Shown here in pieces: positions 18,836 through 23,379 of a DNA stretch of 23,379 nucleotides; within the stretch, counting starts at the first letter, position 1, and the number at the start of each line of letters is the position of its first letter. Both the position numbers and the translations under genes were made by a program. The stretch comes from a virus (Duplodnaviria; Heunggongvirae; Uroviricota; Caudoviricetes): IMG/VR virus record IMGVR_UViG_2802429220_000004. The stretch is one strand, 5' to 3'. Under the pieces are notes generated by a model. That model saw only the letters and a list, made by a program, of their open reading frames with translations, did no database searches and was not told where the DNA came from.

Positions 18836-20497
18836 TTATATGAAAAAAACCGCATATTCTTTCTTTTTGGGCTCCGGATTCAGGGACATCAGGGATACCG
18901 CATTGAAAAGCGCCATCAGCGGGTCGATTTTCCCCCGTCCGCTGGCCTGTTTGGTAATAAGGATGGCGTTACCTCTGGGCTCCACCCGGGCATTGCCAAC
19001 GCACCAGGCCATCAGTGGCTGGCCACCATGCACCAGCACCCCTTCAGCCAGTTTGCGTTCGGTGGTTTTGATGGCCCCGCCCAGCTTCCAGCCCTGGCTT
19101 ATCCCCACAACAATTCCGTCGGGGATCCCGGCTTCCGCCAGTGAATCCAGAATCTGCCCCACACCTGACGGGTCAATACCGATATGATCCAGTAACTCAG
19201 CCTCATGAATACGACGCACATACTCCGCCACTTCCGCCGTGTCATCCCCGACCCGACGGACAATCGTCATGTCTCCACAGGCCACAAAATCCTGAAACCG
19301 GGATGCCTCACTCTTCCGTCGGACCACCGCGGTTTCATGCGCCCAGGCATGGCCCCAGCCTAACCATTCGCGGGTCTCCCGATCACGACCAATCACGTAC
19401 ATTCCCAGCAGATCATCCAGGCCCCCGCCGTCAATCCCCACCGTCACCACATCAGCGCGCTGCAGGATATCTTCCAGGCTGACGCGCCTGCCCTGCTGCT
19501 CCCAGAAATCCGCGCCCGCCCAGCGGTCAGAACGCAGGGCAAGGCCAATTTCCACATTGGCGTGTTTTGACATGAAGCCACGAAATGCTTCCTCACCAGC
19601 CTCCCGGGCTTTACGGTACTCCCGGTACAGAAAGGCCTCATCCACCGAATAGCCGAGATTCGGATTGACCATGGCGAGGTTTTCCATCAGCAAGTGAGCC
19701 CCGCTTTCCACCATTTCAGGAGGGTGTTCAAATATCACCGGCAGAAAGTGCGGATCATGAATTTTGCCGTCGCGCACATCCCGGGCGTACTGCAGTTTCT
19801 GTCTGAACACCCCGGCGGGCGGTTCATTCGACTGGGTGGTCGTATACACCACAAACCCTTCCGGGCGGGAGGCAAGGCCGCCTATGGCTTCACGTAACAT
19901 GTCCTCCGCCTTGCACTGCTTGCCAAACAGCCACAACTCATCAATCAGCGTACCCACGGACTTGATACCGGACACCGTATTCGGATCGGCTGCCACCACC
20001 TTCAGGGTGGTGTCTGTCACCCTGTGGGTGATGGTCCGGATATGGGTCTGTACCTGGCAGAGGTCATCCAGATCATCGTCCCGTCGTACCATATCCCTGG
20101 CAGGATTGAAGGCGTTGGCTGCCACCTCCACAGTCGGGGCCAGAATCGTGTAACCCGCCGCCTGCCGCCAGTTCAGTAACAGCGCCGTCATCATGATCCC
20201 GGCGGCCAGTGTGGACTTGCTGTTTTTTTTGGGTATCAGAATGAACACTTCCTTGATATGGCGGACACCGGTCTGCGCATCGTAGGAGCCAAACAGAGCC
20301 GCCACCAGGTCAAACACCCACTGTGCACAGGACTCACCGAACGTCGGGCTGCCCGGTGCATCCACAATCCGCAGTTGTTTAAAAATCGCCAGGGCATGTG
20401 CGGCCTGCTCCGGGTAAATCGGAGACGGAATAATCGACAGCCCCTTTTTCAGGCGCTCTGCCCAGTCCGGGCAGGCCGTGCTCCACACAGGTATCAT
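18836..20497 (-). CDS. terL: Terminase large subunit
   Basis: 553 aa; Walker-A-like …LIPKKNSKST…; acidic nuclease-domain residues; directly downstream of and overlapping the small subunit gene. Confidence 0.9.
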   Translation of the reverse strand: MIPVWSTACPDWAERLKKGLSIIPSPIYPEQAAHALAIFKQLRIVDAPGSPTFGESCAQWVFDLVAALFGSYDAQTGVRHIKEVFILIPKKNSKSTLAAGIMMTALLLNWRQAAGYTILAPTVEVAANAFNPARDMVRRDDDLDDLCQVQTHIRTITHRVTDTTLKVVAADPNTVSGIKSVGTLIDELWLFGKQCKAEDMLREAIGGLASRPEGFVVYTTTQSNEPPAGVFRQKLQYARDVRDGKIHDPHFLPVIFEHPPEMVESGAHLLMENLAMVNPNLGYSVDEAFLYREYRKAREAGEEAFRGFMSKHANVEIGLALRSDRWAGADFWEQQGRRVSLEDILQRADVVTVGIDGGGLDDLLGMYVIGRDRETREWLGWGHAWAHETAVVRRKSEASRFQDFVACGDMTIVRRVGDDTAEVAEYVRRIHEAELLDHIGIDPSGVGQILDSLAEAGIPDGIVVGISQGWKLGGAIKTTERKLAEGVLVHGGQPLMAWCVGNARVEPRGNAILITKQASGRGKIDPLMALFNAVSLMSLNPEPKKKEYAVFFI

Positions 20498-21057
20498 CCG
20501 TTGCCCTCATTATCATTATTCACCACCAGTCGGGGTGGTGGTGGCACCGCAAAACGGTTAGCCGCTTTTTTCGCCGCGTCACCTTTTGCCGATTTTTTAC
20601 CAGCATCGCCTTTTTTATAGTGTGTGAACTGCGCCAGTCGCCAGGCCGCATCCAGTGCCAGTTTCGGGTCAATTATCAGGTTTTCCACCAGGATCCTCCC
20701 CATTGCTTTTACCGGATCTGGAAGACCGTCTTCCATGTAATCAATACTAGGAGATATCACCACGGGCGGTGGCATCTCCGGATTTGTTTCGTCCTGCTGT
20801 GGTATTGCAGCCGCCTCACGGCGACGGGGTTTATCCTCCTGCTCTGATTTTTTCTGCCGGTAAACAGGAACCTCATCCACCTCCACCGTCTCGCCCTGTT
20901 TACGGGCTATAAACGCAAGCACCTCCGGATCTTTTGCCAGCTGCGAGCCTTTAACTCTGGCCGTCTTCGCCGAATAACCTGCCGCAATGGCTGACGCTGT
21001 TTTGTTTTTCCCGGACATGAGCGCCAGCGCAAATTTTCGTTTTTGCGTCGTCAGCAC
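20494..21057 (-). CDS. terS: Terminase small subunit
   Basis: Lys-rich N-terminus (possible helix-turn-helix), Pro/Lys-rich tail; GTG start at 21057 preceded by GGGAGGG (alternative ATG at 21018); 4-nt overlap with terL. Confidence 0.75.
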   Translation of the reverse strand: MLTTQKRKFALALMSGKNKTASAIAAGYSAKTARVKGSQLAKDPEVLAFIARKQGETVEVDEVPVYRQKKSEQEDKPRRREAAAIPQQDETNPEMPPPVVISPSIDYMEDGLPDPVKAMGRILVENLIIDPKLALDAAWRLAQFTHYKKGDAGKKSAKGDAAKKAANRFAVPPPPRLVVNNDNEGNG

Positions 21058-21348
21058 AGTGCCCTCCCGGGGTCAAAACTCTCTCAGCCGGGCATGCATC
21101 AGGCCGTTTTCCCACACCGCGCATACCCCGAATGTTAACTGCTGCCTGGTTAACATTTTCCGAAAAAGTCGGTTAACATTTTTTCCACGCAATAAACTGA
21201 ATTATAAAGATAAAAACAGAAAAAAGGCCGAACAGCCAGTTAACATGTTAACTGGCCTGAAACGGGAATTTTTTCTCTGCATGAGAGGGGGCGCGGTGTC
21301 CGGAGCGATCGTTTTTTTCGCCGGATGATCCCCCCCCCCCGGGGCGGG
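21058..21348. promoter_or_regulatory. Non-coding cos-like region between HNH and terS: GTTAAC-core repeats, 20-bp perfect palindrome, AT-rich core, C11 tract
   Basis: GTTAAC cores at 21134, 21149, 21172, 21239, 21247; palindrome CCAGTTAACATGTTAACTGG at 21236-21255; AT-rich stretch 21186-21235; C11 at 21330-21340. Confidence 0.5.
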
Positions 21349-21714
21349 TCACAGTCCGATGATATCGTCTGCCCTGCCATGACCTCCGGACACCTCCGGC
21401 AGCGTCGGGTCCGGCATACCACCCGCCGCTTCACGAGCAGACTTTTGTCGATGGCATTCGGTACAGAGCGTCCAGAGATTCGTCTCCTCATTACCACCAC
21501 CGAACTGAAGTGCAATTCGGTGATCGAGTTCACTGTCACAGAGGTCAACCACACGACCACAGAGACAGCACTGTCCGGCATCCCTCAGCCAGATATGACG
21601 CTTGAGGGAAACACGTGCACTGCCACTGACACGACGCTGTTCCCCCTTCAGAATATTCACCCGTCGGGTGTTCAGAGTTTTGATTCTGCTCTGGAGTGTA
21701 CGAAGCTCAGCCAT
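21349..21714 (-). CDS. HNH endonuclease (terminase-associated)
   Basis: …CCLCGRVVDLCDSELDHRIALQFGGGNEETNLWTLCTECHRQK… carries the HNH/zinc-finger signature; position directly upstream of the terminase genes. Confidence 0.85.
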   Translation of the reverse strand: MAELRTLQSRIKTLNTRRVNILKGEQRRVSGSARVSLKRHIWLRDAGQCCLCGRVVDLCDSELDHRIALQFGGGNEETNLWTLCTECHRQKSAREAAGGMPDPTLPEVSGGHGRADDIIGL

Positions 21715-21755
21715 GTAAAATCCCCGTCATATGGCAATCAGTAAAGGAAATAAAT

Positions 21756-21956
21756 ATGTCATCGAAAAACCGGACCCGCAGAACCACAACCCGCAATATC
21801 CGTTTCCCCAATCACATGATTGAACAGATCAACATCGCCCTTGAGCATAAAGGGTCCAGTAACTTTTCAGCGTGGGTTATTGAAGCCTGCAGGAGAAGGC
21901 TGGCAACAGATGCAACGCATCTGCGTACGGCCAGCATGACAAATAACGAGAAATGA
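21756..21956 (+). CDS. Arc-like ribbon-helix-helix DNA-binding protein (66 aa); the only credible plus-strand gene
   Basis: ATG at 21756 with AAGGAAAT SD; NIRFPNHMIEQINIALEHKGSSNFSAWVIEACRR aligns with P22 Arc NLRWPREVLDLVRKVAEENGRSVNSEIYQRVMES; AT-rich relative to flanks; lies in a gap not used by minus-strand genes. Confidence 0.65.
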   Translation: MSSKNRTRRTTTRNIRFPNHMIEQINIALEHKGSSNFSAWVIEACRRRLATDATHLRTASMTNNEK

Positions 21957-22148
21957 ACGTTCGGTTTCTTCCACCATCGTACCGGACAGGCGACTATGAG
22001 GGGACAACGCCGCGCTCCGTTAACGCGGTAAACCCCGGTGTGTATCGTTTTTGATTATCCCCGCACACTCGCGCAGAGGAGTCTCCCTGTCGGGCTGCGG
22101 TCTCTGTTAATGAGGGAATACAGCGACGATACGGCGCATCAGCAAAAC

Positions 22149-22616
22149 TTAGTTCAGGCACTGAGTGCGGATATAGTCCTGTGCCCCTTCCAGTTGCTTC
22201 TGCATCGTCATCAGCCGCTCTCTGAGGGTGAAATAATCCCGTGTAACGGTGTCTGCCAGTTGGGGGCCGGTTGCATTATCCACGCGGGCGGTGCCGGTGG
22301 CTTCACGCACGGTACCGGGACAGTTGGCGTTGATGCGCAGGCGCTTACGACCAGCGGCAACATCAGCGCGCAGAGTTTCATTTTCAGCTCTCGCATCGGC
22401 TAATTCCCTCGAGTATCTGGCATCAAGTGCAGCAACATCACGCTGGCGCTGCTGCATATCAGTAATGGTTGCATTCGCCTGTTCCAGCTCTCTGGCTTTT
22501 TTATCGCGCTGCGCTTTGTAGGTGAGCGCGTTGTCACGGTAATGGTTTGTTGCCAGCCACAGCGCACCACAGCCAACCGCCAGGACAATAATCACCACAC
22601 ACAGAACACGGTTCAT
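22149..22616 (-). CDS. Rz: Rz inner-membrane spanin
   Basis: Close match to lambda Rz (N-terminal TM, …[43 protein letters not shown]…TMQKQLEG…). Confidence 0.9.
22211..22396 (-). CDS. Rz1: Rz1 outer-membrane lipoprotein spanin, embedded in the +1 frame of Rz
   Basis: [20 protein letters not shown]… with lipobox Cys; Pro-rich mature part …[30 protein letters not shown] matches lambda Rz1; GAGGGAA SD. Confidence 0.8.
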
Positions 22617-22623
22617 CTCTCTT

Positions 22624-22758
22624 TCACCCCACCAGTCCCGATAACGTCAGGACTCGCCAGGCGGTGGAAAAGAAAATGGCAACCAGCATGACTAAAAATG
22701 AAATGCCGACAAGTACACAGAGGCTCTTCACCAGCGTTATGAGTTTATCTGATATCAT
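22624..22758 (-). CDS. Unannotated small single-TM membrane protein (44 aa) between the Ant-like gene and Rz
   Basis: ATG at 22758 is 11 nt after the upstream stop with a GGGGTGG SD-like element; its stop is 7 nt before the Rz ATG; product [44 protein letters not shown]; below the ORF-track length cut-off. Confidence 0.4.
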
Positions 22759-22769
22759 TAGCCACCCCA

Positions 22770-23264
22770 TCAATCCGCCTTTGTTATTTTCCCTTTGCCT
22801 GTATCAGCCAGGACAAAATCAATCAGCATATTCGCTTCATTTACCAGCGTACGGATTTTTGATACATGCGCGGCTTTAACCTGTTTCCACTCATTCAGCC
22901 CGGTAGCAAACACACTGGCAATATTTTTATCCCGTTTCATGTCAGCACAAGCCTGGTTGAGTTCTTCCATCACGCTCATTTTACGGGGATTAACGACAAA
23001 ACCCTTCGTCCAGTACTCGTAAAGAACATCGTCGCACTCTTCCTGATACCGGATGACCTTATCGCGGATTTCGGGTTTTACTTTGTTGGGATTAATGGTT
23101 TGTAGCCAGCCGGCAAGTTTTCGAAGTGGCATGGACACCATATTGCGTTGTTTCCCATCCTCAGCAACCATAACGATTTCCGTTATAGTTGACGCAAAAC
23201 GCTGTCTTAACTTAGCCAACTGTGATTGCCAGGCCAGCCCCATCCCCGCAACGACAGGTTTCAT
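22770..23264 (-). CDS. Phage protein, possibly antirepressor-like (Ant/KilAC-like); function uncertain
   Basis: 164-aa ORF immediately upstream of the small ORF and Rz; assignment is from recalled gene order in Stx-type lambdoid phages, not a motif match; weak SD at the 23264 ATG. Confidence 0.5.
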   Translation of the reverse strand: MKPVVAGMGLAWQSQLAKLRQRFASTITEIVMVAEDGKQRNMVSMPLRKLAGWLQTINPNKVKPEIRDKVIRYQEECDDVLYEYWTKGFVVNPRKMSVMEELNQACADMKRDKNIASVFATGLNEWKQVKAAHVSKIRTLVNEANMLIDFVLADTGKGKITKAD

Positions 23265-23379
23265 GGGAACGTATGGTTCGCCATTATGGTTAACTACATA
23301 AAGAGAGTTGCCGTGAAACGTAAGCGACTCGTCAGAACCGTATTGATATTTACTGAGAGCTCAGATCAACTTTCCAGGG

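Follow-up and report, generated by a model that had tools for sequence, protein, structure and literature searches.

A YlcI/YnfO-family gene at the packaging-module border of lambdoid prophages and a probable ribbon-helix-helix fold for its product

What does a small gene do when it runs alone against the late operon of a lambdoid prophage, directly beside the DNA-packaging genes? We addressed this question for the open reading frame (ORF) at positions 21756–21956 of a 23,379-nucleotide stretch of tailed-phage DNA (IMG/VR record IMGVR_UViG_2802429220_000004; hereafter the window, meaning the whole stretch at its full length). The window is the late region of a BP-4795/Shiga toxin (Stx)-like E. 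coli prophage with HK97-type head and packaging genes. An earlier note on this DNA had read the ORF as a repressor resembling Arc of phage P22 that might, with a nearby antirepressor-like (Ant-like) gene, form a split control module of the immI type. As judged from its sequence matches, the ORF is an already catalogued accessory gene of lambdoid prophages, belonging to the YlcI/YnfO (DUF3950) family (hereafter ylcI for simplicity). We find that it holds a conserved slot beside the cos/terminase module, that its product probably adopts a ribbon-helix-helix (RHH) fold, and that it varies independently of the Ant-like gene.

The ORF runs from ATG to TGA over 66 codons, with an AGGA Shine-Dalgarno sequence 7 nt upstream. 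It is the sole long ORF on the plus strand of the window, all remaining long ORFs lying on the minus strand, and in a 99.9% identical E. coli prophage RefSeq annotates the same lone opposite-strand gene, in agreement with the earlier note's description of a 66-codon gene embedded in an otherwise unidirectional operon. The same note had called the gene AT-rich, which overstates a real difference: the guanine-plus-cytosine (GC) content of the coding sequence is 48.8%, below the 56.7% of the window. The encoded protein is strongly basic (isoelectric point, pI, 11.5). Within the first 50 codons, the window and lambda genes differ by 19 synonymous and 5 non-synonymous changes, and comparison with lambda, DLP12 and Qin together gives 18–19 synonymous and 5 non-synonymous changes. 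Residues R16, F17, P18, I25, N36, F37, S38, W40, V41 and C45 are invariant across 23 family sequences with identities down to 27%, and the family motif IRFP...NFS(A/S)WV..AC is present in the first 50 residues of the window protein. Past residue 50, the tails vary in both length and sequence between alleles. The ORF is intact, and preceded by a Shine-Dalgarno sequence, in all contexts. We conclude that it is a genuine protein-coding gene whose first 50 codons are under purifying selection.

Family assignment rests on several models. The window protein matches Pfam PF13132 (DUF3950) with 71.7 bits against a gathering score of 25 (expectation value, E, 4.6e-20), NCBIfam NF041551 (YlcI_YnfO_N) with 35.4 bits against a curated cut-off of 30, and phrog_949 at E 1.6e-32. 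RefSeq protein WP_000095746.1, a 'YlcI/YnfO family protein', occupies the equivalent place in the 99.9% identical prophage, and records of related prophages and phages name the ORF either 'YlcI/YnfO family protein' or 'DUF3950 domain-containing protein'. The surrounding 2 kb shares 99.9% identity with prophages in a large number of E. coli chromosomes and ~96% with phage BP-4795 and with Stx-converting phages; identical and near-identical proteins are present in public databases. YlcI of DLP12, YnfO of Qin and an ORF of lambda belong to the family by curated thresholds and share ~90% identity over the first 50 residues, and each lies in the slot beside the cos/terminase module, antisense to the late operon; the window gene differs from them in carrying another C-terminal tail.

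The family is narrow. At E ≤ 0.001, 102 clusters (50% identity) were found among 1.84 billion representatives, and many of the cluster representatives are error-laden copies of lambda sequencing-control DNA. Matches appear in Streptomyces, Pseudomonas, Cohnella, Flavobacterium and other genera because this control DNA contaminates public assemblies; we rejected them as true taxonomic spread, the contigs being ~3.5 kb or 48.5 kb long and carrying bor, ybcV and Rz (loci L005–L043). Genuine divergent members, with 35–45% identity and ~60 amino acids, are found in Proteus, Morganella, Providencia, Moellerella, Serratia and Rouxiella, and those of Proteus, Morganella, Providencia and Serratia retain the family motif.

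We compared the surroundings of the gene across the 80 closest IMG/VR loci (L045–L124), 78 of which extend to the HNH endonuclease gene of the packaging module and 64 of which extend far enough past the spanin gene Rz on the other side. The HNH match starts 42 nt from the ylcI start, leaving a 41-bp divergent gap, in 78 of 78 loci that reach that far, and the gene for the terminase small subunit (TerS) lies ~697 nt from ylcI in each locus that reaches it. The opposite flank varies: between 730 and 3585 bp separate the ylcI and Rz starts, and the interval holds cargo such as a TonB-C-like lipoprotein gene, genes of KilA-N/Bro/Rha type or a RelE-like pair, each of them encoded on the late strand.

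The same arrangement is found in phages with a different packaging module. Lambda carries an intact 64-amino-acid ORF (NC_001416, 48109–48303, complement) ~200 bp from the right cos end; its product is 100% identical to K-12 YlcI, although the ORF is absent from the annotation of that record, and the same gene is found in 434, HK629, HK630 and DE3. In DLP12, ylcI diverges from the Nu1 homologue nohD, as ynfO does from nohA in Qin, with the spacing fixed at 389 bp. The packaging-side neighbour thus differs between the two types, an HNH gene at 41 bp in the window and cos plus a Nu1 homologue at 389 bp in the DLP12/Qin/lambda type, and the window has no bor/DUF1398 block downstream of ylcI, unlike the lambda/DLP12/Qin group. 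Between lambda-type and HK97-type contexts, homology begins at the start codon and stops near codon 50. Because the homology is limited to these ~50 codons, the spacing is fixed and the other flank is variable, we regard ylcI as a constant element at the border of two unrelated packaging modules. The slot is conserved: ylcI is the first gene beside cos/terminase, running against the late operon, in both lambda Nu1-type and HK97 HNH/TerS-type modules. In being small, oriented against the late operon, located in the Rz-to-cos interval and lower in GC than its surroundings, ylcI resembles the moron-type genes of the lambda late region, such as bor. It differs from typical morons in being a constant element at a module border rather than variable cargo, and in that no promoter or terminator stands out.

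What kind of protein occupies this slot? The predicted layout of YlcI is a basic arm, a putative beta-strand (R13 N14 I15 R16 F17), helix A at residues 19–32, a turn at G33–S35 and helix B starting at residue 36–37. The earlier note had held that the strand and both helices align residue by residue with P22 Arc. With hhalign, the YlcI family profile placed residues 11–33 on Arc 8–30 (P 0.0025), and against a 20-sequence Arc-family profile residues 9–33 fell on Arc 6–30 without gaps (P 7.8e-4, probability 25%). With the profile trimmed to its core, the probability was 43% (P 2.4e-4) and the strand and helix A aligned ungapped over 25 columns. In the hhalign register, N14 and R16 fall on Arc N11 and R13, I15 and F17 on L12 and W14, and P18 on P15. 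The residue-by-residue correspondence is thus too strongly put: it finds weak support for the strand and helix A, helix B aligned with gaps and at low confidence, and BLASTP gave no alignment between YlcI and Arc at E ≤ 100. A Pfam search at E ≤ 10 returned DUF3950 alone, with no Arc (PF03869) or RHH model, and a sequence search of the PDB with YlcI gave no match. Membership in the Arc family is not supported, there being neither a BLASTP alignment nor a Pfam Arc match; the protein has a family of its own, DUF3950/YlcI-YnfO, and its likeness to P22 Arc is that of a small basic protein whose strand and helix A can be aligned without gaps.

Other comparisons point to RHH proteins more broadly. 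The family profile matches a CopG-family RHH structure (PDB 9kkd_A) in the same register at E 0.4, YlcI matches a HicB-like PHROG family at E 0.0037, and one member of the YlcI family matches Pfam RHH_6 at E 0.09, so that the RHH assignment of the earlier note finds weak profile matches in its favor but nothing for YlcI among the Pfam Arc and RHH models. In the AlphaFold2 (AF2) monomer, which has a mean predicted local distance difference test (pLDDT) score of 75 and 86–89 in the core, helices at 19–32 and 37–64 lie behind an extended segment at 12–18. The best PDB matches of this model in Foldseek are all RHH or RHH-like (NikR, a TCP domain, ParD2, Arc 1par_C and ParD1; E ≥ 2.2), and TacA is also among the weak top fold matches. 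The likeness to CopG/ParD/HicB-type RHH domains therefore consists of weak but mutually consistent profile and fold matches, none of them significant, and the window ylcI differs from CopG/ParD/HicB-type systems in having no toxin partner. Although each of these lines is individually weak, an RHH fold for YlcI is likely, and the strand-helix-turn-helix layout of a small, strongly basic RHH DNA-binding domain is a plausible best reading of the sequence and the model.

The best-supported mechanism, which we favor with moderate confidence from the sequence comparisons and the structural model, is that YlcI acts as a DNA-binding regulator, dimeric and of RHH type, encoded where the late region borders cos. 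In this proposal, the N-terminal domain of 50 conserved residues would form an RHH dimer in which the paired strands R13-N14-I15-R16-F17 build a beta-ribbon that reads the DNA major groove, while the DNA backbone would be held by the basic N-terminal arm and by the start of helix B (N36-F37-S38). The allele-specific C-terminal tail would be left free for other contacts. Such a dimer, with its DNA-reading ribbon, would make YlcI a small regulator that binds DNA in a sequence-specific way, most likely as a repressor or an autoregulator, and its expression would come from a leftward transcript of its own, as for accessory genes that are expressed in lysogens.

Several observations weigh against this proposal. 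The AF2 monomer shows no beta-strand, and a deeper alignment gave a poorer AF2 model (pLDDT 65). Scans for promoter and terminator consensus sequences around ylcI, in the window and in lambda, returned matches at chance level only, and among inverted repeats around the gene nothing compelling lies near it. The non-coding flanks of the window and DLP12 genes share a single 12-mer, the DLP12 copy of which is inside nohD. Finally, the searchable literature holds no functional or experimental study of ylcI, ynfO or DUF3950, mentions being confined to mutation tables or gene lists. The sole expression hint found there is the listing of K-12 ylcI in a convergent transcript overlap with ybcW (PMC12288877).

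If YlcI reads DNA, which site might it read? The earlier note had pointed to motifs with a GTTAAC core near ylcI and the Ant-like gene and in the cos-like region as candidate operators. The motifs are where it placed them: GTTAAC occurs 8 times in the window against 3.1 expected, among them at 22019, at 23289 and five times, as an array, within 21134–21252, in the intergenic region between terS and the HNH gene, where a cos site of HK97 type would be expected. This array accounts for 5 of the 6 GTTAACA 7-mers in the window and contains GGTTAACATTTT twice, ATGTTAACTG and a perfect 22-bp palindrome, GCCAGTTAACATGTTAACTGGC. The window-wide enrichment is due to this cos-region cluster alone, the lone sites at 22019 and 23289 being at chance level. 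In the close relative BP-4795, the sequence directly past the gene has no site corresponding to the former, and the latter falls within the Ant coding sequence. The array itself accompanies the same packaging module in BP-4795 and in another prophage (locus L127), but neither the lambda right end nor the ylcI–nohD and ynfO–nohA intergenic regions contain it, even though the putative DNA-reading strand of YlcI is identical in all of these. The array thus tracks the HK97-type cos/TerS type rather than YlcI; it is probably a set of TerS (cosB-like) sites, and GTTAAC is not likely to be the YlcI operator.

The main rival explanation is that YlcI is linked to packaging, either as a cos-proximal DNA-binding accessory of the terminase module or as a factor in a packaging conflict between helper phages and satellites. 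We consider this unlikely overall, yet it draws on two bodies of evidence, the first being the fixed position of ylcI at the packaging-module edge, which holds in two unrelated modules, set against the variable flank on its other side. The second comes from satellite relatives. Several clusters of 120–129-amino-acid proteins consist of a DUF3950 domain fused to the first ~50 residues, the DNA-binding domain, of a Terminase_2-type TerS, and the fused TerS part is 66% identical to residues 2–54 of the window TerS. These fusion proteins are encoded in satellites resembling phage-inducible chromosomal islands (L127, 6001–6363; L126, 4714–5103; and L128–L130), by a gene that lies between int-alpA and the primase operon and diverges from that operon. 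The fusion gene is preceded by repeat arrays that resemble the GTTAACA array of the phage cos region; the one in L127 has five copies of GTT(T)AA(A)CA and the one in L126 three copies of GTGCA(C)AAACAC.

The L127 satellite also encodes a 60-amino-acid DUF3950 protein, and its gene is preceded by two perfect 12-bp palindromes, TGGTACGTACCA (L127, 5545–5589). The two copies are 33 bp apart around a TATAAT-like element, the second overlapping the start codon of the 60-amino-acid gene, an operator-like layout; this palindrome is absent from the window. The DUF3950 genes in satellites diverge from the replication/packaging operon, and this regulator-like context of the homologues speaks for the regulator proposal above. 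In E. coli CP027459.1 (L127, 8044–8321), the satellite adjoins, at its integrase end, codon ~92 of a terL that is 96% identical to the window terL, the homology ending at window position 20220, and the satellite appears to have inserted in or beside terL of a prophage of the window's type.

Together, the TerS fusion and the operator-like layout support the view that DUF3950 serves as a DNA-binding module in settings of regulation or packaging recognition, and the fusions keep a packaging-linked role of the phage protein alive as a rival without establishing it. On the other side, synteny alone can be explained by shared ancestry or a recombination joint, and a fusion indicates the co-use of two domains but says nothing of the function of the free protein. 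Moreover, lambda-type and HK97-type phages carry almost the same YlcI domain, yet no motif common to their cos regions was detected. To our knowledge, lambda packaging in vitro and in vivo is explained by Nu1, A, IHF and FI without the ylcI ORF. That YlcI-family proteins are cos-module-associated DNA-binding factors that matter for the choice of packaging site or for the contest between helper and satellite is, on these sequence comparisons, quite unlikely, though it would fit the fusions.

YlcI could also be an RHH antitoxin-like protein whose variable C-terminal tail neutralizes a partner encoded downstream. A conserved N-terminal DNA-binding-like domain followed by an allele-specific tail is the usual layout of an antitoxin, the weak matches to the RHH domains of HicB, ParD and TacA fall among antitoxins, and a DUF1398 gene on the same strand comes 57 nt after ynfO in both Qin and E. 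albertii. However, no same-strand gene follows ylcI in the window or in its 80 closest relatives, and in lambda and DLP12 a gene on the opposite strand intervenes. DUF1398 is not known to be a toxin, and a PADLOC search for defense systems gave no match. We regard an antitoxin role as very improbable.

The circuit proposed in the earlier note, in which the Ant-like gene is under the control of an Arc-like repressor acting at GTTAAC operators within a split immI-like module, fares slightly worse. The RHH-like features in Arc register speak for it, and the Ant-like gene is indeed present at about the distance given, 814 bp from ylcI past Rz/Rz1, with a P22_AR_N match at E 3.5e-36 plus ORF11CD3; in some relatives the variable slot between ylcI and Rz holds different genes that resemble antirepressors (KilA-N, Bro, Rha). 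But an Ant-like homologue occurs in only 5 of the 64 closest loci that extend far enough past Rz, and lambda, DLP12 and Qin encode near-identical YlcI proteins and no Ant. The proposed coupling is unsupported because Ant and the other antirepressor-like genes come and go while ylcI remains constant. A module of the P22 immI type would call for arc and ant co-transcribed from one promoter, for a divergent mnt, and for joint inheritance of regulator and antirepressor. In the window, by contrast, Ant is part of the lysis cassette and is read from the late strand, opposite in strand to ylcI and not co-transcribed with it, with a small ORF and Rz/Rz1 in between; the window annotation contains no mnt-like gene; and the two genes are unlinked across genomes. 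Adding to this the chance-level GTTAAC sites and the missing Pfam Arc match, we consider this circuit highly improbable and largely refuted by the co-occurrence data: ylcI varies independently of the Ant-like gene, and YlcI is not an Arc-type controller of Ant.

Least probable of all is that the ORF makes no functional protein and that the conserved 150 bp serve either as a joint at which modules recombine or as an element that targets the antisense late transcript, since the homology between phage types, which begins exactly at the start codon and ends near codon 50 like a mosaic joint, and the lack of a detected promoter are set against a protein-like substitution pattern (19 synonymous to 5 non-synonymous), a motif kept in homologues at 35–45% identity, an ORF intact with its Shine-Dalgarno sequence in all contexts, and an Rfam search of the ylcI region that matched no family.

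The coordinates of ylcI and its neighbors are collected in Table 1. At the edge of the cos-type intergenic region, directly downstream of the HNH stop codon, there is also a C8/G-rich palindromic run, CCCCCCCCGGGGCGGG, at 21333–21348.

Table 1. Features of the window around ylcI, with the basis of each assignment.
Feature	Position	Strand	Basis
YlcI/YnfO-family (DUF3950) gene, 66 amino acids, pI 11.5	21756..21956	+	ORF, Pfam, NCBIfam, phrog, RefSeq
Shine-Dalgarno-like AAGGAA, 7 nt before ATG	21744..21749	+	read from sequence
Conserved N-terminal 50 codons	21756..21905	+	invariant alignment columns, codon differences, AF2 helices, hhalign register
Variable C-terminal tail	21906..21953	+	tail sequence and length differ among alleles
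Terminase large subunit (TerL)	18836–20497		Pfam/PHROG searches
Terminase small subunit (Terminase_2)	20494..21057	-	Pfam, annotation
Array of five GTTAACA motifs, terS–HNH intergenic (cos-type) region	21132..21256	.	
HNH endonuclease gene of the HK97-type packaging module; start 41 bp from ylcI start, divergent	21349..21714	-	Pfam HNH, annotation
Spacer between ylcI and Rz, variable cargo slot in relatives; lone GTTAAC at 22019	21957..22148	.	
Rz spanin, with Rz1 embedded at 22211–22396	22149..22616	-	Pfam Phage_lysis, Rz1
Small hypothetical late-strand ORF (phrog_4906)	22624..22770	-	
Ant-like gene (P22_AR_N + ORF11CD3), late strand, between endolysin and Rz; variable cargo	22770..23339	-	Pfam, annotation

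Although thousands of E. coli genomes already have this gene annotated and the Arc/Ant circuit of the earlier note fails, YlcI/YnfO is a very widespread family for which the searchable literature reports no tested function and which the lambda RefSeq annotation omits. For this family, the present evidence offers a testable fold and mode of action, that of a predicted dimeric RHH DNA binder. The gene has a fixed place at the edge of the packaging module, and the fusion to a TerS DNA-binding domain in satellites is a new lead; if the packaging or satellite reading were true, lambda would carry an overlooked player 200 bp from cos.
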